The notes beneath the pieces were generated by a model that ran no database searches, was not told the origin of the DNA, and saw only the letters and a program-made list of their open reading frames with translations. The translations under genes were made by a program, and so were the position numbers. From the NCBI GenBank assembly GCA_043808175.1, contig JAZDFE010000002.1:4906-68905 (forward strand): a stretch of 64,000 nucleotides of DNA. The letters run 5' to 3'. This document shows, one piece after another, positions 1,937 through 63,974 of the stretch (position 1 is the stretch's first letter; every line of letters starts with the position of its first letter). Origin of the DNA: Candidatus Omnitrophota bacterium. Its GTDB lineage: Bacteria > Omnitrophota > Omnitrophia > Omnitrophales > Aquincolibacteriaceae.

Positions 1937-4900
1937 TTAGTTTTCTTTCCGGGACGAGCCGGCGCGAGTAAGCTCGAATTTATCGAGCACCTTTTCCTGG
2001 AAAGCTTGCATATAGAGAAAAAGCCCTGGCGTTACAAAGAGCGTTACCACCTGAGAAAAGACGAGCCCGCCGACCACGACCAGCCCGAGGGGGACCCTGG
2101 AAGAACCGTCCGCGCCATATCCGAGCGCGATCGGCAAAGCGCCCATGATCGCCGCGAGTCCCGTCATGAGGATCGGCCGGAAGCGCACAACGCTCGCGTC
2201 GTGGATCGCGTCAAAGTTGTTCTTCCCTTCGGCAAGGCCCTGATTGGCAAAGTCCACCATCATGATACCGTTCTTGGCCACAATGCCAAGCAGCATAAAG
2301 ATCCCGACATAAGCATAAAGGGACATCTCGGAGTGGAAGATCCAAAGCGTGGCAAGGCCGCCGAGCGTCCCGACCGGAAGCGTTGTGATGATCGTGAATG
2401 GATGCACATAACTTTCATAGAGAATACCGAGGATCACATATTTAATAAGAATCGCGATTAGGATCAGGAGGGTAAGACTCGCGATAGCGTCCGAAAATTC
2501 CTCCGCTTCGCCCTGCAGTTTCCCGGTAACCTCGGCCGGAAGAAGTTTCTCAGCCGTTTGTTCGATAAATTTCGTCGCATCTCCGAGAGGGACCCCCTCC
2601 TTGAGGTTGAACGAGATCGTCCCGGAATTCAGCTGCGAGTCATGCGGCACATTTTGCGGGGTCACCACTTCGGTCCATTCTAAGACAGAGCTTAGGGGCA
2701 CCATCTTTCCCGTGGCGCTTGCCCGGACATAGACGCGGGAAAGATCTTCCGGAACTTTCTGGTACTCCTTTTCGAGTTCTACGATCACCTGGTATTGATC
2801 GATCTGGGTTTTATAAAGCGTCACTTTGCCTTGGGCATAAGCCAGCGACAAGGCGTATTCGATATCCTGCGCCGTGATCCCTAAGGTCGACGCCCGGTCC
2901 CTTAAGATCGTGGCCTTCAAGGTCGGCAAGGTCAGTTTGACGCTGTTCTGAACGTCCACAAATCCGGGATGTGCCCGAAGCTCTTTTTCAAGCTGCATCG
3001 CGCTCTCATAAACTTTCCCCTGGTCTGCGCCGCGGATCGTGTAGGAATATTTGCTCCCCGAAGCGGTGCTTTCGCCGCCGGTGCTGATCTGAAGGGAGGG
3101 CGTTGCTTTAAGGAACGCGAATCCTCCGGCGATCTTTGCCAGCTTGCCGCGGATCTCCGCCAGGGCCTTGGCCATCGGGAGGCGCTTCCCGGAAGGCTTG
3201 AGCACAATATGGATGAACCCGGTGCTCTGGTCGGAGCCGGTCTGAAGTCCGGAAGCGGTCAGCGTCCGTTCAATATTGGGGTCCGCTTCAAGCACATGGT
3301 TCACTTGGGCTTGGTACTGGCGAGCCTGTTTTGTCGAGGTCCCGAGAGGCATCAATGTACCCCCCATGATCGCGCCGCTGTCGCCGTCCGGAAGAAATGT
3401 TTGAGGCAGCACATTGAAAAAGTATACGGTCCCGCCCAGACAAGCCACCCACAGAACGATCGTAATGAATGGCCGCAGCAGGATCTTTTTGAGAAGAATG
3501 CTGTATCCTCCGATCACTTTGTCCATGAACGGATTCATGATCCTCTGGACCCAGTTCTCTTTTTCTTTTCCCTCCTCCTTGGCCTTCAACATGCGCGCGC
3601 ACATCATCGGCGTGAGCGTAAGCGACACCACACCGGAACAAAGGATCGTCACGACCACCGTGATCGCAAATTCCCTGAAGATCCTTCCGACAACACCCCC
3701 CATGAATACCAGTGGAATAAAAATGACCGCTAAGGAAAGCGTCATGGAAAGGATCGTAAAACTGATTTCTTGAGCGCTCTTGATCGCGGCCGGAAACGGT
3801 TTCATGCCTTGTTCGATCAGACGCACCGTGTTTTCAAGCACCACGATCCCGTCATCCACGACGAACCCGACCGCAAGAATGATTCCCATAAGCGACAGGT
3901 TGTCCAAACTGAAATGGAGGGCCTTCATGACAAGGAACGAGGCAATGATGGAAACCGGCAACGTCATCGCGGGAATAACCGTGTCTGATAAACGCCCGAG
4001 GAAAAGAAAAATGACAAGAATGACCAGCACGAGCGCGATCAGGATTGTGTTCTTCACATCGTCGATGGACGCGATGATCGATTCGGATTTGTCGTAGTAA
4101 ACGGACAACTGGACCGAACCCGGGATCTCACGCTTCAGCTCTTCAACCGTTTGTTTGATCCGCTCGGCAAGACCCACCGTATTCGATCCCACCTGACGGA
4201 AAACAGGAAGCACGGCCACGCCGGCATGCAGCTTCTCGCCCGGCCGCGTCGTCGCCATCACATTCACAACGTCACTTTCGGTGCTGTTCACGCAAGTCGC
4301 GATATCCCGCAGCCGGATAGGAGCGCCGTTCCGGTAGGCCACGATCAGTGACTCATACTCCTTGGCGTCGATCATCTGCCCTTGAGGCTGGATCGAAAAA
4401 GTCCGCGCGTTTCCGTTCAAACTCCCTCCGGGGACCGTCACTGTTCCCGTTTGAACAGCCGCGGCAATATCATTCAACCCGATCCCATAGGCGGCCAGCT
4501 TGGCGGGATCCACCTGGACACGGATCGCGGATTGTGATCCGTAGACCTGAACCTGCGAAACGCCTTCGATCATGGAGATCCGCTGGCCGATCGTCCGGTT
4601 CGCATAATCATAAAGCTGGCCGGGGGTCAGACTGTCAGAAGTCACCATCAGATACATGATCGGTGTGTCGGAGGGGTTCGTTTTTGTATAAGTGGGCGGC
4701 GCCGGAAGATCTGTCGGCAGATTCGCCTGCGCGCGCGAAATAGCGGCCTGTACGTCCGGCGCCGCGAGGTCAATACTCCGGTCCAGATCAAACGTGAGCA
4801 TGATCTGAGTTTGACTGTCCGTGTTGGTGGAAATGATCGATTTGAGCCCCGGGATCTGCATGAACTGGCTTTCAAGGGGCGATGCCACCGTCGAGGCCAT

Positions 4901-5074
4901 GGTGTCCGGACTCGCGCCGGGATAAGCCACCGTCACCGTGATCACGGGAGAATCCACCACGGGAAGATCGCTGATGGGAAGACTGAAAAATGCGGCAACA
5001 CCAAAAAGCAGGACGAGCACCATGAGCAGCGTCGTCATGATCGGTTTTTTTATGAAGCTTTCCGTAAAACTCAT
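1937..5074 (-). CDS. RND (AcrB/HAE1-type) efflux transporter permease
   Basis: 1045-aa ORF with 12-TM RND layout and two large periplasmic loops. Conserved TM4 region GFVVDDGIVVLEN. Third gene of an OMF-MFP-RND operon. Confidence 0.93.
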   Translation of the reverse strand: MSFTESFIKKPIMTTLLMVLVLLFGVAAFFSLPISDLPVVDSPVITVTVAYPGASPDTMASTVASPLESQFMQIPGLKSIISTNTDSQTQIMLTFDLDRSIDLAAPDVQAAISRAQANLPTDLPAPPTYTKTNPSDTPIMYLMVTSDSLTPGQLYDYANRTIGQRISMIEGVSQVQVYGSQSAIRVQVDPAKLAAYGIGLNDIAAAVQTGTVTVPGGSLNGNARTFSIQPQGQMIDAKEYESLIVAYRNGAPIRLRDIATCVNSTESDVVNVMATTRPGEKLHAGVAVLPVFRQVGSNTVGLAERIKQTVEELKREIPGSVQLSVYYDKSESIIASIDDVKNTILIALVLVILVIFLFLGRLSDTVIPAMTLPVSIIASFLVMKALHFSLDNLSLMGIILAVGFVVDDGIVVLENTVRLIEQGMKPFPAAIKSAQEISFTILSMTLSLAVIFIPLVFMGGVVGRIFREFAITVVVTILCSGVVSLTLTPMMCARMLKAKEEGKEKENWVQRIMNPFMDKVIGGYSILLKKILLRPFITIVLWVACLGGTVYFFNVLPQTFLPDGDSGAIMGGTLMPLGTSTKQARQYQAQVNHVLEADPNIERTLTASGLQTGSDQSTGFIHIVLKPSGKRLPMAKALAEIRGKLAKIAGGFAFLKATPSLQISTGGESTASGSKYSYTIRGADQGKVYESAMQLEKELRAHPGFVDVQNSVKLTLPTLKATILRDRASTLGITAQDIEYALSLAYAQGKVTLYKTQIDQYQVIVELEKEYQKVPEDLSRVYVRASATGKMVPLSSVLEWTEVVTPQNVPHDSQLNSGTISFNLKEGVPLGDATKFIEQTAEKLLPAEVTGKLQGEAEEFSDAIASLTLLILIAILIKYVILGILYESYVHPFTIITTLPVGTLGGLATLWIFHSEMSLYAYVGIFMLLGIVAKNGIMMVDFANQGLAEGKNNFDAIHDASVVRFRPILMTGLAAIMGALPIALGYGADGSSRVPLGLVVVGGLVFSQVVTLFVTPGLFLYMQAFQEKVLDKFELTRAGSSRKEN

Positions 5075-21392: not shown

Positions 21393-21657
21393 CGGCGTAC
21401 TGGTTTATCATTTATTTAAAAAATAATAATGAAACTAGTACTGTCATGATTACCGTCCAAACTTTTCATTTCTTTTTCAAAACGGTAGTCGGCACTGATT
21501 TTCATTTAATTTTTAGATTGGAAATCAGTACAGTCCCAACCAACCCTTAAATGAATCGGAGGGTTGGGGCTGGACGGCCCCAATCTCAGCTATGCTTCGA
21601 TTGATAGGTATTGGGACCGTTTATTTTTTGATTGATGAAAATCATGGCGTACCGACC
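21393..21657. repeat. hairpin-module array (AT-loop family), modules in both orientations
   Basis: CTGGTTT..AAACTAGtactgtc; CTGATTTtcatttaat..AAATCAGtacagtc; CCCAACC..GGTTGGGgctggac; GGCCCCAAT..ATTGGGACC; inverted copy of the CCATGATTTTCAT module. Confidence 0.8.
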
Positions 21658-23829: not shown

Positions 23830-24106
23830 CGCCTGATTCTCCTATTAAGTTTTATAAAGAATCAGTGCAGCACCGACTTTCAATTAACTGCTCTTATCGA
23901 CAGTCGGTACGGCATCGTACTTGTTCACCGGCGCAAGTGCGGTCAGAGTACGAAGCTGATATTATGCTCCGACTCTGCCGTCCCAATACTTATCAATTTC
24001 TGCAAAGCAGAAATTGGGGCGGTCTTGGTTACCGTTGATCAAAAGAAAATTAAAACCAGGGCCGTACTTGTACACAGGTACAAGTGCCTACGGTACCGGT
24101 ACCGAT
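23830..24106. repeat. hairpin-module array (AT-loop family)
   Basis: The first two modules are identical to 20862-20942. Then come ACTTG..CAAGT, CAGAGT..ACTCTGccgtc, CCCAATACTTATCAATTTCTGC..GCAGAAATTGGGG, TGGTT..AACCAgggccgtac, ACTTGTACacagGTACAAGT and GGTACCGGTACC. Confidence 0.8.
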
Positions 24107-40800: not shown

Positions 40801-41421
40801 GTGGATCTCCGCAAATTCCGTGAAAGGCCCGTCCTCGGGATCCTGCGCGGGATCACCCCTTCGCAGTTGGAGCCCCTCTTCGAATCGATCATCGCCGGCG
40901 GTCTTCGGGCCGTTGAGATCACGATGAACACCGAAGGCGCGACCGGACTTATCAAGAACGCGGTCCGGCGCTACGGTAAGCAACTGATGATCGGAGCCGG
41001 AACCGTTCTCACTTTGAAAGATCTCCAGGCTGCACTTCGCGCGGGCGCGACCTTCATCGTGAGCCCTGTCGTGGTCCCTCCCGTGATCGCATACTGCGCC
41101 AGGCACAAGATCCCCGTTTTCCCGGGAGCGCTGGCCCCTCGGGATATTTATGAAGCGTGGCGGGCCGGAGCGACGATGGTGAAGGTATTCCCCGCCGGCT
41201 GTTTCGGGCCGGATTATTTCAAAGAGATCAAAGGCCCGTTCCCCAAGATCGAGCTCCTGGCGTGCGGCGGGGTCACGCCTCAGAACCTGCCGGATTATTT
41301 TAAGAACGGCGCGAGTGCCGCCGCGGTAGGCTCGAGCGTCTTCCGCAAGGATTGGCTCGCCGCAAAGAAATTCCACCTCATCCGCAACCAGATCCGCGCC
41401 TACCTCAAAGCACTCCCCTAA
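40801..41421 (+). CDS. eda: KDPG / 4-hydroxy-2-oxoglutarate aldolase
   Basis: GTG start 2 nt after the previous stop. VLGILRG, RAVEITMNT, GAGTVL, VKVFPA (Schiff-base Lys), GGV. Confidence 0.82.
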   Translation: MDLRKFRERPVLGILRGITPSQLEPLFESIIAGGLRAVEITMNTEGATGLIKNAVRRYGKQLMIGAGTVLTLKDLQAALRAGATFIVSPVVVPPVIAYCARHKIPVFPGALAPRDIYEAWRAGATMVKVFPAGCFGPDYFKEIKGPFPKIELLACGGVTPQNLPDYFKNGASAAAVGSSVFRKDWLAAKKFHLIRNQIRAYLKALP

Positions 41422-41476
41422 AAAGCGATCCGACGGAATTTCTTGCGAATCCGGAAGCACGCTCCGCAGGTCGAGC

Positions 41477-41637
41477 GGGCATGGTGTCAGCCAGGAGAGT
41501 GCCTTGCTTCGACACCGGCGGTTCCTCGTTTCCGGCGAACGATGACCGCCTGCGCTCTCGCGCTTCGCCTCGCTCAAAGCGAGACCAAGCTCGAAGCGCT
41601 CCGAGAGCTGCCTCCGGCAAGGCACTCTCCTGCTGAC
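41477..41637 (-). ncRNA. conserved multi-stem element, copy A (orientation given relative to copy B; transcribed strand unknown)
   Basis: A 21-bp closing helix (41486-41507 / 41617-41637) encloses the blocks CAGCTCTCGGAGC, GAGCTTGGT, GCGAGAGCGCAGGC and GCCGGTGT, which are shared with 55394-55552. The inner stems differ from copy B but stay complementary. Confidence 0.5.
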
Positions 41638-41645
41638 GAGCAAGA

Positions 41646-41833
41646 CCGGTCCCAATACTTATCAATTTCCACAGAGTGGAAATTGGGGCCGTCCTTGTCG
41701 ACCATTTGGGAAAAGAATGAAAGACAAGGGCGGAGGCGCGAGTGAGTTTTTCCACGCCGGGGAAAAACGAACGGTGCCGAAGGATCCGCAAGAAATTCCA
41801 CATTTTGTTCACTTGGAATCAGGGAATTGGGGG
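41646..41833. repeat. hairpin-module array abutting the uvrB stop codon
   Basis: GGTCCCAATACTTATCAATTTCCACagaGTGGAAATTGGGGCCGTCC; CTTGTC..GACAAGggcggag; further imperfect modules. Confidence 0.7.
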
Positions 41834-43936
41834 CTAGCGTTTTTTGCGGGGGATCCGGACGGATCTTTTGGGCGTGCCCTTTTGGGGCGCGCCTTCCCCT
41901 TCGATCCGGCGGATCTCGTCGCGATAACGGGCGGCCTTGTCGAACTCCAGCGCCCGCGCGCAAGCTTCCATCCGGGTCTTGAGGAACGCGAGATAGTTCT
42001 TGGTCTCGTATGCTTTTCCGGATTCATGGACCACGTCATGGACGAACTCTTCGGCCTTTTTCCATTGTTCGATCCCGTCCTTGATCTCTTTCTGGATCGA
42101 GACCGGGGTGATCTTGTGCGCCGTATTGTAGTCCGCCTGGATCTTACGGCGGCGCGCGGTCTCATCGATCGCCCGCTTCATGGAATCCGTGACTTTGTCC
42201 CCGTACATGAGGACCCTGCCGTTGACGTGACGTGCCGCCCGGCCCGCGGTCTGGATGAGCGAAACGTCGCTCCGGAGGAAACCTTCCTTGTCCGCGTCGA
42301 GCACGACCACGAGCGACACTTCCGGGAGGTCCAGACCTTCGCGCAAAAGGTTCACGCCGATCACGCAGTCGTATTTCTTGAGACGGAAATCGCGGAGGAT
42401 CTCCACCCTCTCGAACGCGTCGAACTCCGAGTGAATGTAATGCGCCTTGATCCCGAGCTCCTTCAGGTACCGGCTGAGATCTTCGGCCATCTTTTTGGTC
42501 AGCGTCGTGACGATCGTCCGTTCCCCTTTCTTCTCCCGCGCCTTCACCTCGCCGATCAGATCGTCGATCTGTCCTTCGGTCTTCCGGACCTCGATCTGGG
42601 GGTCCATCAACCCCGTCGGGCGGATGACCTGCTCCGTCACTTCTTTCACGCGGCCCATCTCGTAAGGCCCCGGCGTCGCGGAGACATAAAGACACTGCTT
42701 CAACTTGGCCTCGAATTCCGGCCATCGGAGCGGCCGGTTATCCAGCGCGGAAGGCAGGCGGAACCCGTGGTCGACCAGGACCTTTTTCCGTGAAGCATCG
42801 CCGTTGAACATGCCGCGGATCTGCGGCACGCTTTGGTGCGACTCGTCGATGATGACGAGAAAATCCTTCGGGAAATAATCCATGAGCGTGTAAGGTGTGG
42901 AGCCGGGAGCGCGTCCGGAAAGATGACGGGAGTAATTCTCGACGCCGGAGCAATAGCCGACCTCCTTCAGCATCTCAAGGTCATATTGCGTACGCGACTC
43001 CAGGCGCTTGGCCTCAAGGTCCTTGCCTTCGGAAGCGAGTTTCTTGACGTGTTCTTTCATTTCTTGCTCGATCGATACGATCGCGGCCTCGAGCCTTTCG
43101 CCCGGGGTCACGAAATGTTTCGCGGGATAGATCGCGAGTTTTTCGACCTCCCGGAGTGCGGTCAATTTCACGGGGTCGAGAAGCGCGATCCGTTCGATCG
43201 CCTCGGGACCGCCCAAACTTTTCATTTCTTTTCCAGAGTGGTAGTTTGGACGGCCCCAATCTCCGCTTTGCTTCGATTGATCGATATTGGGACCGAAATC
43301 GATGCGGTAAGGATTCTGTCCGTACGACGGAAGGAGGTCGATCCTGCCGCCGCGTACGCGGAACGTTCCCCGCCGGAGCTCGGTCTCCTCCCTTTCATAT
43401 TGAAGGCTGATCAGGCTTGAGAGGAATTTGTCGCGGTCCGCGGCCTCGCCTTTGGCGATCGTGATGAGAAGTCCCTGCCAGTCCTCCGGCGCGCCGAGGC
43501 CGTAGATGCAGGAAACGCTTGAGACGATGATACAGTCCTTGCGCGAAAGGATGGAGCTGGTCGCGGAAAGACGCAGCCGGTCGAGGTCTTCGTTGATCGA
43601 GGCGTCTTTTTCGATGTAGGTGTCCGTGTGCGGGATGTACGCCTCCGGCTGGTAATAATCGTAATAGGACACGAAGTATTCGACGGCGTTCTCGGGGAAG
43701 AATTCCTTGAGCTCCGAATAAAGTTGCGCGGCGAGGGTCTTGTTGTGGGAGATCAAAAGCGTGGGGAGCCCGAGCCGGGCGATCACGTGCGCCATGGTGA
43801 ACGTCTTTCCCGAGCCCGTCACCCCCCGAAGGACCTGTTCCTTTTCCCCGGCCAGGAAACCCTCTACCAGCTTTTCGATCGCCTGCGGCTGATCGCCCTT
43901 CGGCTTCATGGAGGAAACCAATCTGAACCCGCTCAT
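41834..43936 (-). CDS. uvrB: excinuclease ABC subunit B
   Basis: 700 aa. Walker A GVTGSGKT, helicase motifs (DESH, ...), C-terminal UVR motif LEFDKAARYRDEI. It carries a 28-aa repeat-derived insertion. Confidence 0.95.
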   Translation of the reverse strand: MSGFRLVSSMKPKGDQPQAIEKLVEGFLAGEKEQVLRGVTGSGKTFTMAHVIARLGLPTLLISHNKTLAAQLYSELKEFFPENAVEYFVSYYDYYQPEAYIPHTDTYIEKDASINEDLDRLRLSATSSILSRKDCIIVSSVSCIYGLGAPEDWQGLLITIAKGEAADRDKFLSSLISLQYEREETELRRGTFRVRGGRIDLLPSYGQNPYRIDFGPNIDQSKQSGDWGRPNYHSGKEMKSLGGPEAIERIALLDPVKLTALREVEKLAIYPAKHFVTPGERLEAAIVSIEQEMKEHVKKLASEGKDLEAKRLESRTQYDLEMLKEVGYCSGVENYSRHLSGRAPGSTPYTLMDYFPKDFLVIIDESHQSVPQIRGMFNGDASRKKVLVDHGFRLPSALDNRPLRWPEFEAKLKQCLYVSATPGPYEMGRVKEVTEQVIRPTGLMDPQIEVRKTEGQIDDLIGEVKAREKKGERTIVTTLTKKMAEDLSRYLKELGIKAHYIHSEFDAFERVEILRDFRLKKYDCVIGVNLLREGLDLPEVSLVVVLDADKEGFLRSDVSLIQTAGRAARHVNGRVLMYGDKVTDSMKRAIDETARRRKIQADYNTAHKITPVSIQKEIKDGIEQWKKAEEFVHDVVHESGKAYETKNYLAFLKTRMEACARALEFDKAARYRDEIRRIEGEGAPQKGTPKRSVRIPRKKR
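43211..43296. repeat. two hairpin modules inserted in frame inside uvrB
   Basis: CCAAACTtttcatttcttttccagagtggtAGTTTGGacggc + CCCAATctccgctttgcttcgattgatcgatATTGGGaccg. Both have close relatives at 21456-21495 and 21580-21625. Confidence 0.8.
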
Positions 43937-54685: not shown

Positions 54686-55111
54686 ATGAAAAAGGGTTAT
54701 CTTGTTATTCTTGTTCTTTTGACCACCGTCATCCAACTCGGCATGGCGCGGTCCGGCCAGTATGATGAAGACGCGCGCGCGCAGGAAAAGATCCAGAAAC
54801 AAATGGATAACGAGAACCTAACCCCTGAAAAGAGCCATCCCGCAAAAAATTTCGCGACGGGAGTTAAAGAAATGACGGTTGATAATGTGAAGGACACTCT
54901 CGACGATACGGCCCACAGCACCATGAGCGAAAAGCCGGTGGTCGGGACCCTGGACGGAACGCAGCAGGCAGGAGAAAAGGTCGTCGATAACACCATCAAG
55001 GGCGTCAAGAAGGTCGTTTCTCTCGGCTACGCGAAAAACGATCATTACGAGATCGAACAGGCCGAAAAGGGCTCCGGCGACGCCGCCAAGATCAAGCTCT
55101 TCAAGTTCTAA
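54686..55111 (+). CDS. secreted hypothetical protein
   Basis: Signal-like MKKGYLVILVLLTTVIQLGMA. The 141-aa hydrophilic mature part has no motif. Confidence 0.6.
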   Translation: MKKGYLVILVLLTTVIQLGMARSGQYDEDARAQEKIQKQMDNENLTPEKSHPAKNFATGVKEMTVDNVKDTLDDTAHSTMSEKPVVGTLDGTQQAGEKVVDNTIKGVKKVVSLGYAKNDHYEIEQAEKGSGDAAKIKLFKF

Positions 55112-55131: not shown

Positions 55132-55165
55132 AAAAAAGCCGGGTCAAAAAAGCCTGGCTTTTTTT
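55132..55165. terminator. bidirectional intrinsic terminator
   Basis: AAAAAA-AGCCGGG-tcaaaaaag-CCTGGCT-TTTTTT. It has an A-run upstream and a T-run downstream, so it reads as a terminator on both strands. Confidence 0.65.
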
Positions 55166-55393
55166 GTGCCTCAACCCAATAGACTTGGGTGCATCCCCCT
55201 TCCGCTGTTTATTTGTCTCTTTATTGAGCCCTCCGTCGGGAAGTGTGTTTCGCCAACGTTCGCCATGCCCCGCCGAGGCATGACTTCACTCGCAAGCGTC
55301 GGCCTCGATGAAAAACCGTGGCTCTCGGCCTCCTTAGCGTGGCTCGCCGCACTTCCCGCCGTCGGCTCAAGAGAAGGCGAAAAGTTGAGATGA

Positions 55394-55552
55394 GGCAGGC
55401 AGGAATCGTAACGAGACAGCTCTCGGAGCTGATGGGAGCTTGGTTCCGTTCCTCATGAACGGATCCCATCAGCGAGAGCGCAGGCTGGCACTCGCCGCTG
55501 GAGCGAGTGAACAGCCGGTGTTGAGAGACGATTCCTGCCTGCCACCCTGCCC
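55394..55552 (+). ncRNA. conserved multi-stem element, copy B (transcribed strand unknown)
   Basis: 16-bp closing helix GGCAGGCAGGAATCGT / ACGATTCCTGCCTGCC. Nested hairpins CAGCTC-tcg-GAGCTG, CTGATGGGA...TCCCATCAG around TCCGTTC-ctcat-GAACGGA, and CACTCGC-cgctgga-GCGAGTG. It shares four sequence blocks with copy A. Confidence 0.5.
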
Positions 55553-55619
55553 ATTCCGTCTCGCGAGCGAGCCTCACCGCATTGGGATTGCTTCCAAGGT
55601 ATCCAGCTGGAATAATAAA

Positions 55620-58600
55620 TTAGGCTGCTACGGCGAAGGCGAGGGTGGCGTCGTAACTTCTCTGTAGGGCATTGACCAGGGACTCGGCAACGATCCAGAA
55701 CCCGTCCCGGCCCCGGCTTATTTCCCGAAGCCGCGCATCTTCCCCGCCGGACCACGCCCAAAGAAGCGCTGCCGCCAAGGTTCCGCCGTTTTGCCCCTGG
55801 GTCTTAAAGAAAGAGACCTTCTTCCTCAGACGTTGGACCAACTCCTGGGAGGGAAGGATCTTCTTTGAAAGATGAATGCTCGGCGCGCCCGGCCGGTCAA
55901 AGCTGATCTGCGACCCGGCAAGATCTCTGTCGGTCCTCGTCACGCGGTCCAGTTTAAGCAAAGCGCCAAGTTCTTTATCCTGCACCTGGCCGCGCTCGTT
56001 ATAGACCACGATCCGGACCCCCCGGCCGGAAAGAGCCGCGTAAAAATATTCGTTCTTCTGCGCCAGAGAAAGATTGGGGAAATCCTCGGCGTCCACGAAC
56101 ACCGTCGCAAGCTGCACGCTCTTGCGGATGGCTTTCACCATCTTGTCCTCACGCATCTCCGCCCGATTCTTCGGATCGGGACGGATCCGTCCTTCGCTTT
56201 GCAAAGGCGGATCGAAATGCTGGCTTTCGGCTTCGCTCAACGCCCTACGCTCAACACCCAACGTATTTTTTTCTTCCGTCCCCTGTTTCCCCTTCTCCGT
56301 TTCCCCGGATATTTTCCTCACCTCCGACCGCCCGACTGCGCCGGAACGTGGCACCTTGTCTGTGACAAACACGCGCTGTGCGGTCCAGTTAAGGGTGGCA
56401 CGGCGGTTCTCAGATTGAACAGAAACATCGGAAGATCTTTTCCAACCCGCCCACAATCTTTGTTTCAACGCTTCGAACGCGGTCCGGTCCCCAAAATAGT
56501 CCCGCATGAGATCAGGCATCGCATCATCCAGCGCGGCGCTCTTCGCTTTGATGAACCCCACGGGGCTGAATGCAACGGGCTGTGATTCTTTTTTATAAAT
56601 GAAGAACATGACAATGATATCGCGCCCATTCGCATCCAGAAAAGCGCTCTGAATAAACCACTGCCGTTCGGCTTCCAAGGATTCTGCCAATTGCAGGGCG
56701 GCATCCCGGAGAGCCTTGCTATCGCCGGACCGTAATGCAATATGGGGAACGGGATAGCCGGTTTTTCCGATCGAGACGTCCCCAGCCTCTTCTTCGGGAA
56801 CAAAACTACCGCGAAATTCTGCCATGGGAACGACTTCCGGAGGATACAGATGGAGATGCATATGCGGCACGAAAGCCTCCGAACGATGGAACTCCGTAAC
56901 GGCACCCGCGCGCACCCAGCCAAACTCGACGTCAAGGGCTTTTTCCGTGAGCCACTGTTTCTGCCATTTTTTTGTAACGATCAGCGAATCGAATTCCACT
57001 TTCGGATACGTGCCGGCCCTGACGAAATAATCTGGGTTGAAAGGATCCTGAAAATACTTTTCGGCACTTTCGGCGTCGTACGACTCTTTGTTATCAAACA
57101 AAGATTCTGCATCTCGATTCACACTGACCGCGGGCCGGGCATTCAGCTTCGGCAGAAGAAGTCTTTGAAATGGCCCGTATTTCCTCATTGGGACCAGGGC
57201 CGGATCATAAGCCAACGGTACCTTCCGGTCGTTCGTGACGGGCATTACGGCCGTTTGCGTTTGCTCCCAAAAAACACGGCTTTCATCGAATTTCTTCCAC
57301 CATGAACGCCTTAATTCCTCGACCAGATTCGTACCGGAAACCACCTTCTCTTCGACAACACTGCTTCGCGCCCCTTGAGAAATCTCCTTCCGCGGCGGAA
57401 CAGTCTCATTGTAAACGCTCGAAAGAACGACCGCCGCTTCTTGAGTAGAAAGCGGCAAGTTCGGACTGGGGAATGCTTGTTTGGACAATCGCGCATGAAA
57501 AGCGTTTAAGTAAGCCTTTGTGAGATCCCGTAACGTGACAGACAAGGCGAATCGTTCGTCGACAAAGCGTCTCCCGGCTTCCGCCATTCGATCCCTCTTT
57601 CCCTCATCGATCACGAGCTCACGGATCCTTTCCGCCAGTTCCTGGGGATCGCCTCTCCGGGTCACAAATCCCGTTTTACCGTTTTCCAAAGTTTCCGGAA
57701 GACCTCCGCCGTCCGAAACGATCACCGGTACACCGCTGGCTTGTCCCTCAATGGACACGATACCAAAAGGCTCGGAACCGAGGGTAGGATAAACTGCCAT
57801 GGAGGACAGGTCATACCAATCCCTCATACGCTCGCTCGGCTGGTCTTCCACGAATATCACGTCAACGCCCAACTGTCTTGCCAGTTGCCGCAAACGGAAA
57901 CGCTCCCGGGCTGCAGGATCCCTTTCCGGTCCGACGATCACCACAACGACCTTCGCGGCCAACCCGGGATCTTTCTTGATCAATGCCGCTACCGCCCGGA
58001 TCGTGACCTCCTGCCCCTTCCGGGGAGTGATCCGGCCGGGATGCAAAATAACCTTCCGGCCCTGTAAACCATATTGGTCCTTGAGTTTTTGAACGGCCCG
58101 GCGATCGTTTTCCGTCCTCGCGGCGCTGAAGTAGCTCATATCGGTCACGGGATAGAGCGTTCCGACGTTCTCGATCCCTAATCCGGAAAATACCTTTTCA
58201 TAAGCCTTGCTGCCCGTGACTGCGGTATCGGCATGACGGATCAGATAACGGACGCCTTCCGTGATCGGCCCTCCGTGAAAAAAGTATTGAGAAGCCACGG
58301 AAAACCGGTTCGCAAAAGAAAGCGCTTTTTGCATCATCTGAAAATGGGGCGTCGAACTGTTTAAGGCGATCAATTGGATGGGTTCGCGGGCATGGATCTT
58401 TTCAAGCGATCGCCCCACATGATCGGCTTGTTCTTGATCGCTTAAGACAGCGCCGGCCGCTGTCCTTGCGGGGATCCCGTGGAGCACAAGCCCATTGCCG
58501 GTCTTGAGATTCTTTAAGGAATTTTCCGTGGGTGCCGTTGCGAAATTCAAATAGAGCCAGTCAATGGTCAGGTTCTTCTCGGTCCGCAGCAGCGCCTTGA

Positions 58601-61600
58601 TCATATTGCTTTGATAAGTCTGTACCCCGCCTGTCGTGAGCTGCAGCGGGCAGAAAAAAACAAGATGCCTCACGCCCTGGGCGCTCAGGCCTTCGCCCGG
58701 GGCCCGCTGCGAAGGGATCGTGTTCAAGTCCACAAAAAAAGAGGCCCATGCCCGGACAAACCCTTGTTCCGGTTCTTCCACCGCCGTTCGCACCTCGGAT
58801 CGATTTCCGATTCCGTCAGTCAGTCTCTCTTTGTCCGGTCTATCCGGATCATTCGCATCCTCATCCCGCATCTCGGAACGGGCTTGGGAGCTCGCGGAAG
58901 ACCCCGACAACTGGCCCAGGATCTTCCATCCCGTCCGGCGAACGATCTCCGCCATCATTCCCGGACCCCAACTGTTCATCTCGGCATTATTAAGATCGAT
59001 GATCCTTCTGAAATCGTCTTGCTGCTCGGGACCGCGTCCGGGACCGATCTCCGAAGCATATAAACTCAGAAAGCCGGGGATCCTTGCCGCCAACACTTCA
59101 TCGCGATATTCCTTTTCGAACCCGCTTTCGCGGATCACTAATTCCTGATGTGGGCGAGGACCGTAAATCGTCATTTCCCCCTTCAGGATGTTCCAAAGTT
59201 GCGGAAGCTCATCGATCCCCGAATATTTCAAAAAAGATCCGAGGGGAAATTCGAACAACTTAATGGGCTCATTCTTTCGATCGAGGCTCCTCAATTCAAA
59301 GATCGTGAAGGGTTTCCCGCGAAATCCGACCCTCTTCTGTTGAAAAAGCCACGACATCTTCGGATTCGCGATCTTGATCAGAGGGATCAAAACCGCGAGC
59401 AATGCCATGGACGGGATCGCCGCGATCATGACCGTTGTCAGATCCAGCAGCCGCATCCAGGAAGAGGTTGGAGAAATCGCAAAAAAAGAACGGTTCTGTC
59501 CAAAATCTTGCCGCATCTCGGAGCGCGTGACGAATTTCTCATCTCCAGCAATACGATTCCTAGAGATGAACTCCATGGAGTTTCGAGCCGCCCTTTTTAT
59601 CTCTTTATATTCATCACCTTGTTTTGTGATTAACTCCTGCAGAATAGATCGCGGTGTATGAAGGTTGCAGCCTAACGCGAAGAGGATACCCAAAAGTGAA
59701 TGTTTACCACCATATTGAGTAGCATCAAGATGATAAATATTTTCTAAAACGGTGGAATACATGCTATTCCAGGCCAGAGCAAACAGGATAGGATAGCCAT
59801 CATCGCCTCTGGCGATGCCCGCTCTCAAAACCTCCAGTTGGTCTGCCCTAGCACTTTTCTTTTCCTTATCCCAGGCCTTGTTGAAAAGTTTCACCCAGTC
59901 ATGCCCTCGATTAAAGGCTTCCAAGGAAGCGCAAATCATTCTTTCCTTGATTTTCATCACATTCTTTTTATGAGCTTCAAGGCGTTTGAACACGGCCTCG
60001 CCTGATTGAAGCCCCAATTGTGGCGCTAATCGATCTGCAAAATCATGCGTGATAACGTCTCGCATATCCCTGCCTTTAAGAAACTCCTGGCCAGCTTGAG
60101 GATTTTCATGGTTTTTTTTGATTAATTGCTGAGGAGATTCGTCGCGAATTTTGTGTAGTGTTTCTCGGACGCGCAGAAAAAAGTCCAGAGCCAATTCGAG
60201 CTGTTCAAACTCGCTGGCACTGATCGTGCCATTCTTTCGCATGTTGTTCAGAACTTCGATCGAGCTCATGCCCAAGGAGCGGAAGGCGGTCTTGCCAATC
60301 ATGCAAATCGTAAGAATATCCCGCATCATTCCCCAGCCCTTTTTGATGCTCCTTAGATCTAGAGATTCAAGATTGCGATGCTCCCTCTCATAATCCCAGG
60401 CATCAAAAAAGATGCTGACAACAGCGATCGGATCTTTTTCGATATTAAAAAGAAATGGGTAATGGGGAGTCGCTTGTATTTGCGAATACAAGTTTGAGTC
60501 ACCGATTATAAAAGATAACTGTTTTGCTTTTTCAGCATCAAAGGGATTGCCCCTACATAACTCCTGGAATTCCTCCACCGTCCCCGTCCACGCGTCGATA
60601 TCGTTATATCCTCTTTCCTGTATAGCCGAGATAAATTGATCCCGAAACAATTGTTGATCGTCCTGTTTTGAATCAAAGACGATAAAAACATCAACGTCTG
60701 AATTATAGGTCATCTCCTCCCGGGCAACACTTCCCGCGCCAAGAAGAGCTATTTTTCGGCCTGCCCAAGCCGGATTTTTATATACCCCTTCAAAGGTTGC
60801 TCGACTGGCCTCAAGAAATCTTGCGGTATTAGCTTTGGCCACCGAAATCCCTGAAAAACTCGAATGATCAGTCACATTTGGCGCCAGCCCTTCCTTTTGT
60901 GGATTAGTCCGCATTTCGGAGCGAGATCCTTTGCTATCCTCTCCCTTCGGACGACGTCCGGTGTCGATGGTGATAAGGGATGATGGGTTGGGGTTCATTG
61001 CCTTATGAAATATTAATAGCGGGAGGTTGAATGCCTTATTGCTTTCTCTTGCAGCAGGCAGAATGACTGACATTAAACGCCCTTCCGCATCGACTAATTT
61101 AGCTGCCTCGATTTCATTAAAAAGTGCGGCCCTTTGCGCGACAAACTTCTCACCAGCAGCATCGATCGCTGCGTTAAGAGCACTGTCCCGCGAAGCTTCT
61201 GGAGCGCGTTCCGCCTCAAGATAGGAGTCGACGATCCCTTTTACAAAATCAAAATCAAGCTTCCTCAGTTTCAGAAGATAAGTGTCTATATTTTTGTCAT
61301 TGCTCAGCCCATTAAAGTTAAGCGCATTTAACCAACGCCACTTCAGAAGGCCATGAAGTATTTTGAATATTGCATTCAAGATATCTTGAATGATCTTAAC
61401 CGCTTCAACAACAACAGGCTGGGTAATCTTCCAATTAGAAACGCTAAAATAAAACCTCTTTTTGATCCGGCCAAGATATTTGATGGTCCCATCCGCCACT
61501 TTTTCCCAATTTTCGATGATCTTCTGGATTTCTGGGACGTTGGGATCCTGATAATTTGAGTCATAGGAAAGATTGTCCAGCTTCATCGGCCCGGTCGTCA

Positions 61601-63974
61601 ACGGCTCACCCTTGACCCTGATTTTGGCATACGGACTTCCTTGCTGAATGCGTAATGAACCAAAGAGGCGGGAATCGGTCTCGAAGAGCCTCGTCGTTCC
61701 TATGAACTCCAGGTTACGCGAAAGCGTCGGGATCGTGGCTTGGGGATCGATAAATATGAACCCCACCTCAAGATCGAATTCCCACCTTCTGACATTTTCA
61801 ATCGCTTTCCTGTTCTGCTCTACCGTCACTCCTTTCCCATAATGCCTTAATTGCTCTGGATCGCCAGACTCGATCCCTAGATAGAGTTTTTCCACGCCCG
61901 CACGCCGCAGCAGGCGAAATACTTTATCAACTCTTGCTTCCCTTCTCTTTGTTTCTTCCGGATCGTCACGGACGAAAGGAGCGACATTGTCGGCACGAAC
62001 CGATACCTTTCTGATCGGAACCGGCTTTTTACCCATCGTTTTCCGCTTTTTATTGATCTCGATCATGTGATTCGCGAACTCTTCGACGCGATCCATCGAA
62101 TGTTCAAAATCTTCTTTTTCTTTAACGGGCCCAACAAATTCAGAATCCACGATGTAGAACGCTTTTGCCCCATTCTTGATCAACTTGTCAATTCGATCGA
62201 ATACCCACTTTAACGGAAAAGGCCGCCAAATAGCCCCAAAGCCGCCCTGGATCGAACAAAATGTGCAGTGTCCATACGGACAACCGCGGCTCGTTTCGAT
62301 GCCGTAGTATCCCGTTCCGTCATCCTGGAAGAGCTCGACAGCGTGTTCCTCCGTGATATCGGGATAATCTTCCAGATCCATGCCTTTTTGGGGTTTATTA
62401 AAAACCACCCTCTGGGAATCCGCATCCACGAACGCGACGCCGGGGATCTCCCGATAAAAAGTCATGTCCCGATATTCCGTATTGGATAGAGCTTTATCAT
62501 AAATTTTTTCCAAAGGCTCTTCTCCGTCACCCGCAACGGCGATGACCCCTCCGTAATCTTGCAATTCGTCTTGTTCCAAAAGTTCCCGATAGCCGAATGT
62601 GGGTAGCGTATTTCCCAGCACGATCAACGGCCGGTCATCGCCCATCTCTTTGAACTTTTTCACCAAATAATTTAAGACTACCAGCGAACCCCACTTGGCC
62701 GAAAGACCTACCACGCGCGGTCTTTTTTCTTTGATCTCTTTAAAGATCGCATCATACAGATCATTCCATTGCTGCTCAGTCCATTCACCCTTCCGACCGG
62801 GAGCTTTCTTTTCCCATTCACGCAGGCGCTGATTCATATCAACAATGGATACCGACGCAGCCGGGATCTTAACCCGCATATAGGCCGCCAGCGTTTCGAC
62901 CGCAAGAGGCTCTTGCCAGCGTTCTTTATATTTTGGCGCAATGAGATTCACCAACACCAAATCCGAAGTAGTAGTTCGATGTCCAAGTATGAATCGGATC
63001 TTATCCCGCACTTCAGAGCGACGATTATCTCGATAAACCTCGGCGGCGGGAAAGGTCATAACATTGAGCGTGAGACGCTGTTCGATCAGGGGCGTCGCGG
63101 AGTGAACGCCGAGGGCTTCCACCGAAGACGCGATCGCGCGGAGTTCGGTGCGGGTGGAAGCGGCATCTCCCTGCATGGTTTTTTCAGGTTCAACGTATTG
63201 CAGCATTCCACCCCGCCCTTTACGGAACCAGTAAGGATCTTTGGCCGCAAGAGCCGCCACAGCTGCTCGGTCGGCCCCTATGACCGTATCGCTTTTTACG
63301 GTTCTCCTGATGACTACAGGGGTGTCGCTTCGTATCACACGATTCATCGCCTGATCGATGCCCCAACGACGATTCCCGGTCACCAGGCGATAATTCCAAT
63401 CCCCATTGACGAAGATCAAATCCGAACGGTCTTTCAAACTTCCGGGCTTTTTATCATAGGTCATCCCTGAGGTGGAGAATGGGTCGGTGGAAACGACGAG
63501 CTTCGCTTCCTGTTTCAGGGCTTCCAGCCGGTGCCCCAATCGGGATATCTTTTCATCGGGAGATGCTTTCAATTGTGCGAGAGTATCGTCGACATCTTTT
63601 TGCGTTGTATCACTGACCAAGAATGGGTAATTTCTGACATTGAAAATGACCCGTTCAACGAGGCTGCTGTCCAATAAATACTGCGCCAACCAAAGATCAG
63701 ACACGATCTCGGGACCGACGTTATCCGTGTCCAATTCCAGGGTCTTGACCGAACGGCTTTGAAATTTTCTTATGATCGCTTCCCGGTGGTCGATCAAATA
63801 ATTCCGCTTTGAGTCAGGATCGATCGGGTTCGAGGGATCATAATTGTTGGACCAAAGACCCGCATCAAGCAGGAACGATAATCGATCGGCGGTTCCTGAT
63901 TTTACAAATCGAGCCATCAAATCCGGCAGCCCCTTGGGGGAGGTAAGAAACTCGTTTAAAGCTTGTTGTTTCAT
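55620..63974 (-). CDS. 2,784-aa multi-module fusion protein: DUF89/ARMT1-like phosphatase - B12-binding/radical SAM - GlnE-like nucleotidyltransferase - phosphoglycosyl (polyprenyl-P sugar) transferase - GT4 glycosyltransferase - HIT-like - unknown C-terminal module
   Basis: Uninterrupted ORF. Motifs in order: DTDNVGPE / NGDWNYRL; SRGCPYGHCTFCS; GSVAREEMTYNSDVDVFIVF and DLRSIKKGWGMMRDI; QQKRVGFRGKPFTIFELRSL and DELPQLWNILKGEMTIYGPRP; EPFGIVSIEGQASGVPVIVSDGGGLPE; VPHMHLHLYP. Confidence 0.85.
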   Translation of the reverse strand: MKQQALNEFLTSPKGLPDLMARFVKSGTADRLSFLLDAGLWSNNYDPSNPIDPDSKRNYLIDHREAIIRKFQSRSVKTLELDTDNVGPEIVSDLWLAQYLLDSSLVERVIFNVRNYPFLVSDTTQKDVDDTLAQLKASPDEKISRLGHRLEALKQEAKLVVSTDPFSTSGMTYDKKPGSLKDRSDLIFVNGDWNYRLVTGNRRWGIDQAMNRVIRSDTPVVIRRTVKSDTVIGADRAAVAALAAKDPYWFRKGRGGMLQYVEPEKTMQGDAASTRTELRAIASSVEALGVHSATPLIEQRLTLNVMTFPAAEVYRDNRRSEVRDKIRFILGHRTTTSDLVLVNLIAPKYKERWQEPLAVETLAAYMRVKIPAASVSIVDMNQRLREWEKKAPGRKGEWTEQQWNDLYDAIFKEIKEKRPRVVGLSAKWGSLVVLNYLVKKFKEMGDDRPLIVLGNTLPTFGYRELLEQDELQDYGGVIAVAGDGEEPLEKIYDKALSNTEYRDMTFYREIPGVAFVDADSQRVVFNKPQKGMDLEDYPDITEEHAVELFQDDGTGYYGIETSRGCPYGHCTFCSIQGGFGAIWRPFPLKWVFDRIDKLIKNGAKAFYIVDSEFVGPVKEKEDFEHSMDRVEEFANHMIEINKKRKTMGKKPVPIRKVSVRADNVAPFVRDDPEETKRREARVDKVFRLLRRAGVEKLYLGIESGDPEQLRHYGKGVTVEQNRKAIENVRRWEFDLEVGFIFIDPQATIPTLSRNLEFIGTTRLFETDSRLFGSLRIQQGSPYAKIRVKGEPLTTGPMKLDNLSYDSNYQDPNVPEIQKIIENWEKVADGTIKYLGRIKKRFYFSVSNWKITQPVVVEAVKIIQDILNAIFKILHGLLKWRWLNALNFNGLSNDKNIDTYLLKLRKLDFDFVKGIVDSYLEAERAPEASRDSALNAAIDAAGEKFVAQRAALFNEIEAAKLVDAEGRLMSVILPAARESNKAFNLPLLIFHKAMNPNPSSLITIDTGRRPKGEDSKGSRSEMRTNPQKEGLAPNVTDHSSFSGISVAKANTARFLEASRATFEGVYKNPAWAGRKIALLGAGSVAREEMTYNSDVDVFIVFDSKQDDQQLFRDQFISAIQERGYNDIDAWTGTVEEFQELCRGNPFDAEKAKQLSFIIGDSNLYSQIQATPHYPFLFNIEKDPIAVVSIFFDAWDYEREHRNLESLDLRSIKKGWGMMRDILTICMIGKTAFRSLGMSSIEVLNNMRKNGTISASEFEQLELALDFFLRVRETLHKIRDESPQQLIKKNHENPQAGQEFLKGRDMRDVITHDFADRLAPQLGLQSGEAVFKRLEAHKKNVMKIKERMICASLEAFNRGHDWVKLFNKAWDKEKKSARADQLEVLRAGIARGDDGYPILFALAWNSMYSTVLENIYHLDATQYGGKHSLLGILFALGCNLHTPRSILQELITKQGDEYKEIKRAARNSMEFISRNRIAGDEKFVTRSEMRQDFGQNRSFFAISPTSSWMRLLDLTTVMIAAIPSMALLAVLIPLIKIANPKMSWLFQQKRVGFRGKPFTIFELRSLDRKNEPIKLFEFPLGSFLKYSGIDELPQLWNILKGEMTIYGPRPHQELVIRESGFEKEYRDEVLAARIPGFLSLYASEIGPGRGPEQQDDFRRIIDLNNAEMNSWGPGMMAEIVRRTGWKILGQLSGSSASSQARSEMRDEDANDPDRPDKERLTDGIGNRSEVRTAVEEPEQGFVRAWASFFVDLNTIPSQRAPGEGLSAQGVRHLVFFCPLQLTTGGVQTYQSNMIKALLRTEKNLTIDWLYLNFATAPTENSLKNLKTGNGLVLHGIPARTAAGAVLSDQEQADHVGRSLEKIHAREPIQLIALNSSTPHFQMMQKALSFANRFSVASQYFFHGGPITEGVRYLIRHADTAVTGSKAYEKVFSGLGIENVGTLYPVTDMSYFSAARTENDRRAVQKLKDQYGLQGRKVILHPGRITPRKGQEVTIRAVAALIKKDPGLAAKVVVVIVGPERDPAARERFRLRQLARQLGVDVIFVEDQPSERMRDWYDLSSMAVYPTLGSEPFGIVSIEGQASGVPVIVSDGGGLPETLENGKTGFVTRRGDPQELAERIRELVIDEGKRDRMAEAGRRFVDERFALSVTLRDLTKAYLNAFHARLSKQAFPSPNLPLSTQEAAVVLSSVYNETVPPRKEISQGARSSVVEEKVVSGTNLVEELRRSWWKKFDESRVFWEQTQTAVMPVTNDRKVPLAYDPALVPMRKYGPFQRLLLPKLNARPAVSVNRDAESLFDNKESYDAESAEKYFQDPFNPDYFVRAGTYPKVEFDSLIVTKKWQKQWLTEKALDVEFGWVRAGAVTEFHRSEAFVPHMHLHLYPPEVVPMAEFRGSFVPEEEAGDVSIGKTGYPVPHIALRSGDSKALRDAALQLAESLEAERQWFIQSAFLDANGRDIIVMFFIYKKESQPVAFSPVGFIKAKSAALDDAMPDLMRDYFGDRTAFEALKQRLWAGWKRSSDVSVQSENRRATLNWTAQRVFVTDKVPRSGAVGRSEVRKISGETEKGKQGTEEKNTLGVERRALSEAESQHFDPPLQSEGRIRPDPKNRAEMREDKMVKAIRKSVQLATVFVDAEDFPNLSLAQKNEYFYAALSGRGVRIVVYNERGQVQDKELGALLKLDRVTRTDRDLAGSQISFDRPGAPSIHLSKKILPSQELVQRLRKKVSFFKTQGQNGGTLAAALLWAWSGGEDARLREISRGRDGFWIVAESLVNALQRSYDATLAFAVAA

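Follow-up and report, generated by a model that had tools for sequence, protein, structure and literature searches.

A Y-shaped core shared by small, probably mobile DNA repeats of Omnitrophota and Candidate Phyla Radiation bacteria

Results

Organization of the two copies in the window

The stretch analysed here (the window) comprises 64,000 nucleotides of a Candidatus Omnitrophota bacterium (assembly GCA_043808175.1, contig JAZDFE010000002.1, positions 4,906 to 68,905, forward strand). It carries two copies, A and B, of a folded element that is probably the core of a family of small mobile DNA repeats. An initial annotation had described sequence blocks common to both copies and, between them, helices that differ in sequence but stay complementary; every string it quoted was recovered in place, at 55394–55552 (+) for copy B and at 41477–41637 (−) for copy A. 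In the following feature list, helices are numbered from P1 (closing helix) to P5, and the shell is the repeat sequence that surrounds the core.

41435–41799 (−): copy A, a complete A-type composite of 365 nt that occupies the spacer between uvrB and eda
41733–41799 (−): 5′ shell of copy A with its hairpin GTTTTTCC-CCGGCGT-GGAAAAAC (41768–41746)
41648–41732 (−): module 2, a second small repeat within the 5′ shell of copy A; a variable hairpin, then CCCCAATTTC..GAAATTGATAAGTATTGGGACC
41477–41637 (−): core and tail of copy A, with P1 formed by 41637–41617 pairing with 41507–41486
41598–41610 and 41548–41561 (−): blocks CAGCTCTCGGAGC and GCGAGAGCGCAGGC of copy A, respectively
55187–55393 (+): element X, a core-less shell homologue directly 5′ of copy B, recognized by alignment to the shell of homologue L119
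55394–55543 (+): core of copy B, P1 plus a three-way junction with two hairpin arms, recognized by its match to model R1 and its fold energy
55394–55409 (+): GGCAGGCAGGAATCGT, 5′ strand of P1 in copy B, pairing with ACGATTCCTGCCTGCC at 55528–55543; all P1 pairs covary among homologues
55417–55429 (+): invariant block CAGCTCTCGGAGC of copy B
55419–55424 (+): GCTCTC of copy B, pairing with GAGAGC at 55474–55479 as the invariant helix P2b, without variation among homologues
55428–55473 (+): arm 1 of copy B, P3 (GCTGATGGG/CCCATCAGC) around GAGCTTGGT and the apical hairpin P4 (TCCGTTC/GAACGGA); P3 and P4 covary
55436–55444 (+): invariant block GAGCTTGGT of copy B
55472–55485 (+): invariant block GCGAGAGCGCAGGC of copy B, comprising the 3′ strand of P2b, the junction and the start of P5
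55483–55516 (+): arm 2 of copy B (P5), GGCTG/CAGCC with the inner stem CACTCG/CGAGTG, a conserved CGCNGGA loop and a GAAC bulge
55514–55521 (+): block GCCGGTGT of copy B
55544–55552 (+): tail of copy B
55544–55590 (+): 3′ half of the B-type outer shell of copy B, ACCCTGCCC...GTCTCGCGAGCG...CGCATTGGGATTG, assigned by homology to other B-type copies

As had been noted before, both copies lie in gaps between convergent genes. Copy A is flanked by eda (2-keto-3-deoxy-6-phosphogluconate aldolase, 40801–41421, +) and uvrB (41834–43936, −), and the same uvrB-element-eda arrangement was found at the orthologous loci L022 (metagenome-assembled genome (MAG) fen_1321) and L174. Copy B lies between an open reading frame (ORF) at 54686–55111 (+) and a giant ORF at 55620–63974 (−), which encodes at least 2784 residues and ends about 30 nt past copy B's shell. 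Giant genes are a typical feature of Omnitrophota. Downstream of ORF 54686–55111, a terminator-like hairpin, AAAAAAGCCGGGTCAAAAAAGCCTGGCTTTTTTT, lies at about 55133–55166 (+); a consensus scan missed it on account of one stem mismatch.

Fold and covariation

Compared with dinucleotide shuffles, both copies showed unusually stable single-strand folds (copy B, −94.4 kcal/mol, z −8.7; copy A, −96.3 kcal/mol, z −5.5). Covariance model R1 gave exactly two matches in the 64-kb window, copy B at 55396–55542 (145.8 bits) and copy A at 41492–41631 (131.8 bits), and exact matches to CAGCTCTCGGAGC and GCGAGAGCGCAGGC were found there only in these two copies. For the analysis of covariation, 17 diverse homologues were aligned with MAFFT without a structure reference, and a model was built from them. 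Standard pairs made up 92.9% of the cells, compared to 70.1% in shuffles and 36–43% with slid partners, and 37 of the 48 pairs changed on both sides; none of 500 shuffles reached any of the pairing or covariation measures. The covarying helices and the conserved fold proposed from the two window copies were thereby confirmed.

This pairing pattern indicates that the fold, a Y-shaped three-way junction, is real. Its consensus consists of the closing helix P1, a short P2a, the invariant P2b, arm 1 (P3, GAGCTTGGT and P4) and arm 2 (P5). The shared blocks had initially been described as unpaired, which applies to the invariant junction nucleotides, whereas two of the blocks pair with each other as GCTCTC/GAGAGC and form P2b. 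The inner stem of arm 2, with its conserved CGCNGGA loop, had been overlooked. The junction blocks are the most conserved part of the element and are identical from Omnitrophota to Candidate Phyla Radiation (CPR) bacteria. The genome homologues were retrieved with exact-match patterns in conserved blocks, so that the invariance of GCTCTCGGAGC and GAGCTTGG among the genome matches is partly built in; a metagenome scan anchored on other blocks still yielded an intact block 1, with high full-length model scores. Broken pairs within the otherwise invariant helix were observed in one copy, L181, located in a recG gene.

Relatives and distribution

When one genome per species was searched with sequence patterns, 116 loci were retrieved; about 25 of them were true homologues, and the metagenome scan added about 30 more. 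Together, about 55 distinct copies support the helices; the three-way architecture, the fixed spacings and the conserved loop are maintained throughout. All hosts are Omnitrophota, CPR bacteria (Patescibacteria, Saccharibacteria and Peregrinibacteria) or unclassified MAGs, and a single genome often carries several copies. The majority of copies are located between genes and sit just past complete, ordinary genes. At one locus (L127), two cores are arranged head to head, 11 nt apart, at 4612–4760 (−) and 4772–4913 (+), the second being divergent (25 bits).

No match to the element was found on plasmids (BLASTN) or on viral contigs (two pattern scans). The initial annotation could assign it to no RNA family, and this was borne out with Rfam 15: the window yielded only one tRNA at gathering thresholds, the copy B region only a chance match of 17.8 bits outside the element at E-values up to 10, and eight homologous loci nothing at the element at E-values up to 0.1. 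[quoted passage not shown] Co-occurring protein genes, a check proposed with the first description, were sought by clustering ORFs within 3 kb of all copies; there was no recurrent neighbour, only spurious ORFs over the element and ordinary paralogous families.

Composite repeats in Omnitrophota

Homology among the Omnitrophota copies reaches about 80 nt 5′ and about 55 nt 3′ beyond the core, and the whole unit folds as a rod that carries the core and its closing helix at the apex of the shell. The tail, which had been counted as part of the element, contains CACCNTGCCC and belongs to the outer shell instead of the core. The core measures about 150 nt and the composites 260–365 nt; they are non-coding and occur as two copies in the 64-kb window and several per MAG. 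Three complete composites, L004 (342 bp), L097 (353 bp) and L119 (329 bp), have GGGTGCA terminal inverted repeats and are flanked by the perfect 9-bp direct repeats GCCGTACTA, TCCTATATC and GAAATCTAT, respectively. These are textbook transposition footprints. The earlier characterization of the element as the opposite of a MITE is not supported in Omnitrophota, where the core is nested in repeats with such ends and 9-bp duplications. GGGTGCA-type ends were also observed at the right end of L147 and at the left end of element X.

Element X combines a left terminal repeat, GGGTGCATCCCCC, with the hairpin CATGCC-CCGCCGA-GGCATG and a 7-nt apex at the position held by P1 and the core in composite copies. 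Compared with the L119 shell, 78 of 122 positions are identical in its 5′ half and 35 of 46 in its 3′ half; the right terminal repeat seems to be missing at the junction with copy B. A second core-less shell lies in L104 at about 3395–3620 (−), again with the left end GGGTGCATCCCCC and the hairpin loop CCGCCGA. Because element X has the left end of the complete composites but a 7-nt apex instead of P1 and the core, core and shell are separable modules.

The shell homology of copy B extends to +50..+56 past the end of the model match (55542) and ends at the 5′ edge of the match. AATCCCAATGCG occurs a single time in the window, and no 5′ partner of the 3′ shell was found there. Judged by homology, copy B is a B-type composite without its 5′ shell, adjoining a core-less shell. 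In copy A, the outer stem is formed by GGAATTTCTTGCGGATCC (41799–41782) and GGATTCGCAAGAAATTCC (41452–41435), and the composite folds as DNA at −104.8 kcal/mol (z −7.9). By the same kind of comparison, it is a complete A-type composite with an acquired second small repeat. Both are resident copies, and target duplications were not detectable at their ends.

The second small repeat, module 2, is composed of a variable hairpin, CCCCAAT(T/C)TC, a stem-loop and ATTGATARGTATTGGGAC. In copy A it measures 85 nt and splits the 5′ shell; in L031/L178 it occupies the same shell site, with the remaining 5′ shell upstream, and L077 has the same junction. Module 2 was also located within the P5 loop of L029 and L104 and, on its own, upstream of genes at 21540–21617 (+) and 23980–24062 (−) of the window. 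It was also noted at L059 and L165, and in L029 a 2–3 bp duplication (CAG/AG) may accompany it. A GC palindrome of 19–20 nt, CTGCCTGCCGGCAGGCAGG, was observed in two unrelated positions, the 3′ shell of L097 and the core of L030, and resembles a tiny mobile hairpin.

In-frame copies in CPR genes

In CPR bacteria, the element was found as a naked core with only its closing helix, inserted in-frame and free of stop codons in tgt, glyA, comF, recG and parB. The insertion points are a single site in tgt, a loop after TTHKTLRGPRG in glyA, a linker after the PRIE motif in recG and an N-terminal linker in parB. The glyA and recG inserts are antisense, and those in tgt occur both ways. Peptides predicted from the inserts include GSSRSTVELGIR and SSAPAADAxLRSR. 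The naked copies end in their closing helices, and these have no sequence in common from one locus to another.

About 20 of 120 CPR Tgt homologues carry the insert, 4–5 in sense and about 10 in antisense orientation, the rest being partly decayed or frame-shifted yet open. These carriers, all with the insert at one site, span lineages that share 52–84% protein identity. Two Tgt proteins that are 84% identical illustrate the change of orientation: the insert is sense in P0241 (locus L007) and antisense in P0243 (locus L182), and the L182 insert is an in-place reverse complement of that in L007, with 171 of 241 identities when inverted compared to 136 of 250 uninverted. The inversion has been seen only between genomes of related species, the comparison having covered assembled loci. 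The glyA insert is absent from the closest serine hydroxymethyltransferase (SHMT) homologues, which are 78–83% identical, and this insertion is therefore lineage-specific.

Two candidate traces of the insertion process were rejected. The GAAAT repeat at the recG insert consists of native residues that are also present in insert-free homologues, and for tgt, insertion at a hairpin that already existed, or a footprint left by excision, was discarded given that insert-free alleles show just marginal CCGG...CCGG complementarity. At the glyA insert, AATT(A/C) is a possible target duplication only. Some other observations concern the host genes. Two CPR Tgt proteins, P0285 and P0360, have a different, AT-rich insert of about 30 residues (...LSHSLSNICGK...) at the same tgt site, which may be a general hot spot for insertions. 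Some CPR RecG homologues, namely P0139, P0142, P0156, P0163, P0164 and P0204, have 857–911 residues and an extra PF13366 (GxxExxY) domain, an insertion of another kind. The gene upstream of an insert-free CPR tgt (L185, 1–51) has a weak reverse-transcriptase match (PF00078) and probably has nothing to do with the element.

Conservation of orthologous in-gene copies

Orthologous in-gene copies were compared with their hosts in two genes. In tgt (L007 and L173), the host proteins are 65% identical and the third codon positions 40%, and the element is 76% identical (82/73/72% by codon position). In recG (L123 and L181), the corresponding values are 59% and 39% for the host and 74% for the element (79/75/67%). 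No clear codon periodicity was observed within the element, third positions keeping nearly the same identity as the first two, and the differences in its helices are compensatory. A recent recombination event that brought the insert along was rejected as a cause, host flanks within 50 codons being no more similar than distant ones. Excess conservation of this kind implies either selection on the nucleotides or the fold in place or exact re-insertion at the same site. Decay is visible in some lineages, as in some tgt inserts and in recG L181.

The closing helices of orthologues resemble each other and not the paralogues of the same genome. In the CPR MAG JAUYBE01, the copies in comF (L020) and recG (L181) share a 13-nt stretch of P4, GGTCTCCGAGCGA, that is different in the recG orthologue L123, which suggests that gene conversion has acted between copies.

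Pair composition, strand and orientation

Watson-Crick pairs made up 94.3% of all pairs in 51 unique copies; G·U accounted for 2.05%, A·C for 1.35% and other combinations for 2.3%. In typical functional RNAs, the share of G·U is several times higher than 2%. The excess of G·U over A·C, which would indicate a strand bias, was not significant (p = 0.09). A scan restricted to sigma-70-type promoters found no consensus near copies A and B, and no intrinsic terminator consensus flanked them. A replication-strand rule was also rejected, since the GC skew is negative over the whole window yet the two copies are oppositely oriented.

Because wobble pairs are nearly absent and the orientation is labile, DNA appears to be the likelier substrate. 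The sense and antisense positions and the in-place flipping leave no possibility of a fixed promoter relation, and the antisense and flipped in-gene copies rule out a one-polarity intron as well as a function tied to the host mRNA. The initial annotation had left the choice between a structured RNA and a structured single-stranded DNA site. A classical RNA fits poorly, considering the 94% Watson-Crick pairs with little wobble, the flips and the lack of a promoter consensus, and the single-stranded DNA site fits better.

Discussion

We consider it moderately probable (about 0.58) that a family of small, mobile and non-coding DNA repeats has the element as its conserved Y-shaped core, that these repeats behave like RPEs and are recognized as a folded single strand, and that the element is not a conventional RNA gene. 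A transposase acting in trans, presumably a DDE-type enzyme with a cut-or-copy-and-paste mechanism, would recognize the GGGTGCA ends and move the shell. Since the stems vary freely while the junction is fixed, the core would be read by a structure-specific protein as a folded strand, more likely of DNA exposed during transposition, replication or repair. In CPR bacteria, housekeeping proteins accommodate the naked core in-frame in their loops and linkers, in sense or antisense, as is the case with RPEs, and the core can be inverted in place. The fold, the family, its nesting, the duplications at the complete composites, the in-frame inserts and the inversion are shown here; we infer the enzyme, DNA instead of RNA as the substrate and the contribution of the core.

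RPEs are in-frame palindromic repeats in Rickettsia genes (Ogata et al. 2000, 2002, as summarised in PMC10969869). The element resembles them as a non-coding palindromic repeat of about 100–150 bp that occurs between genes and in-frame within unrelated housekeeping genes, is tolerated as an extra peptide segment and has no transposase of its own. The likeness is one of behaviour; no sequence relation to RPEs is known, and the hosts, Omnitrophota and CPR bacteria, belong to different phyla. The element also differs in structure, with a three-way junction, invariant junction nucleotides and variable helices where RPEs have a simple hairpin consensus; it uses several frames and both orientations and flips in place; and its Omnitrophota copies lie within a larger repeat that has terminal inverted repeats and makes 9-bp duplications. 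The window copies themselves lie outside genes.

The complete Omnitrophota composites are also similar to MITE-like repeats (Correia, ERIC, QMITE): they are non-coding, multi-copy units of 329–353 bp that form long rods, have GGGTGCA terminal inverted repeats and 9-bp duplications, are nested within each other and are located at gene 3′ ends. Unlike in those repeats, conservation is highest in an internal, asymmetric core, which is common to sub-families with unrelated ends and occurs free of any shell. With folded single-stranded DNA sites (attC, IS200/IS605 ends, REP/RAYT and parvoviral T-shaped hairpins), the element shares a conserved structure with variable stem sequences, Watson-Crick-only pairs and a specificity that lies in unpaired or extrahelical bases. 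The core appears to resemble the terminal repeat of adeno-associated virus in its length of about 145 nt, its single closing stem with two arms, its GAGC/GCTC motifs and its two flip/flop orientations. Against these likenesses, no integrase, HUH transposase or Rep gene was found associated with the element, attC R/L boxes and the REP GTAG are absent, and the element is internal to chromosomes, whereas parvoviral hairpins are genome ends. An IS200/IS605-derived element was rejected, as the shell makes 9-bp duplications and tnpA/tnpB are not among the neighbours; an integron attC site was rejected as well, the ends of the element being locus-specific and its neighbours ordinary genes.

Several observations weigh against a mobile RPE-like repeat. 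In composites of the A and B types, to which both window copies belong, neither GGGTGCA ends nor target duplications were found, and no target duplication was established for the naked core. The end helices of the naked form are locus-specific, and this form cannot be accounted for by an ordinary transposase that recognizes terminal repeats. No autonomous partner or associated enzyme was found among the neighbours and fetched loci, and no parent insertion sequence (a longer element with GGGYGCA ends and duplications) occurred in any fetched locus, the search having covered these loci and not whole genomes. In 37 of 43 copies the given strand folds more stably than the complementary one, with a mean difference of about 4.6 kcal/mol, a weak sign of strand polarity. 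In addition, the in-gene copies are conserved far above the synonymous sites of their hosts, which pure selfish DNA does not predict.

The last point, together with junction nucleotides that are invariant across phyla, leads to a farther-reaching proposal, which can be entertained only tentatively. Wherever it resides, the core might be kept by purifying selection as a folded nucleic acid with a function, be it a Y-shaped single-stranded DNA site of a new, protein-recognized class or a new structured RNA. It would ride small repeats between phyla, survive in essential genes by being translatable both ways and flip in place. If this were true, the elements in tgt and recG would owe their excess conservation over synonymous sites to a function at the level of the cell or of the element.

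We regard it as unlikely that the core is specifically a functional structured non-coding RNA, such as a protein-binding RNA or a ribozyme, whose gene is a passenger of small repeats and whose long closing helix is the processing site that frees it from the carrier transcript. The invariant unpaired nucleotides of the three-way junction and the covariation in every variable helix would suit such an RNA, as would the presence of the same core in different vehicles, the better fold of the given strand, the slight preponderance of G·U over A·C and the identity of 74–76% in orthologous in-gene copies compared to 39–40% at host third positions, with no elevation in the adjacent flanks. However, G·U accounts for merely 2% of the pairs, the element is sense or antisense to its hosts and flipped between close relatives, promoter and terminator consensus sequences were not found near the window copies, and Rfam gave no match even at permissive E-values.

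The near-perfect Watson-Crick stems, without strand bias, could also be produced in a functionless palindromic repeat by neutral arm-to-arm correction (template switching or gene conversion in hairpins) together with exchange between copies. The P4 stretch common to two copies of one genome but not to the orthologue, the decaying tgt inserts and the broken invariant helix of L181 agree with this account. Arm-to-arm correction cannot, however, protect unpaired nucleotides, and the junction blocks are the best conserved part; the constancy of architecture, spacings and loop in about 55 copies and the closing helices that match orthologues instead of same-genome paralogues further make it quite improbable.

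An invertible DNA switch would require a recombinase that flips the segment at the inverted repeats of the closing helix and alternates two peptides or DNA states. As in intragenic invertons, a coding segment flanked by inverted repeats occurs in both orientations at one locus in close genomes, both are stop-free and the frame is preserved. We judge this very improbable, as the inverted repeats differ at every locus, so that no sequence-specific invertase could recognize them, no invertase or other recombinase gene was seen nearby, the flipping was seen between species only, and most copies are intergenic, with no obvious output.

The least probable explanation is a small intron-like element removed from the host mRNA by self-splicing, or by a host RNase and ligase at the closing helix: although the element lies in essential genes, keeps its structure at one tgt site over diverse lineages and has a closing helix that joins both insert boundaries, an RNA mechanism needs one polarity and the antisense copies in tgt, glyA and recG violate it, all in-gene copies are in-frame and stop-free, which is needed only if they are translated, most copies lie between genes, and no resemblance to models of group I or group II introns was found.

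As an RPE-like mobile repeat, the element would extend the "protein-coding palindrome" phenomenon of Rickettsia to new phyla, with essential proteins (Tgt, SHMT, RecG, ParB and ComF) carrying the module as extra, invertible peptide segments. For annotation, its copies should be masked as repeats and treated neither as hypothetical ORFs nor as RNA genes. The finding raises the question of what reads a structure whose stems are free but whose junction is invariant. Hardly any mobile or non-coding elements have been described from the Omnitrophota and the CPR bacteria, both major uncultured lineages; the two have in common one Y-shaped module of about 150 nt, which may serve as a marker for horizontal exchange between them.

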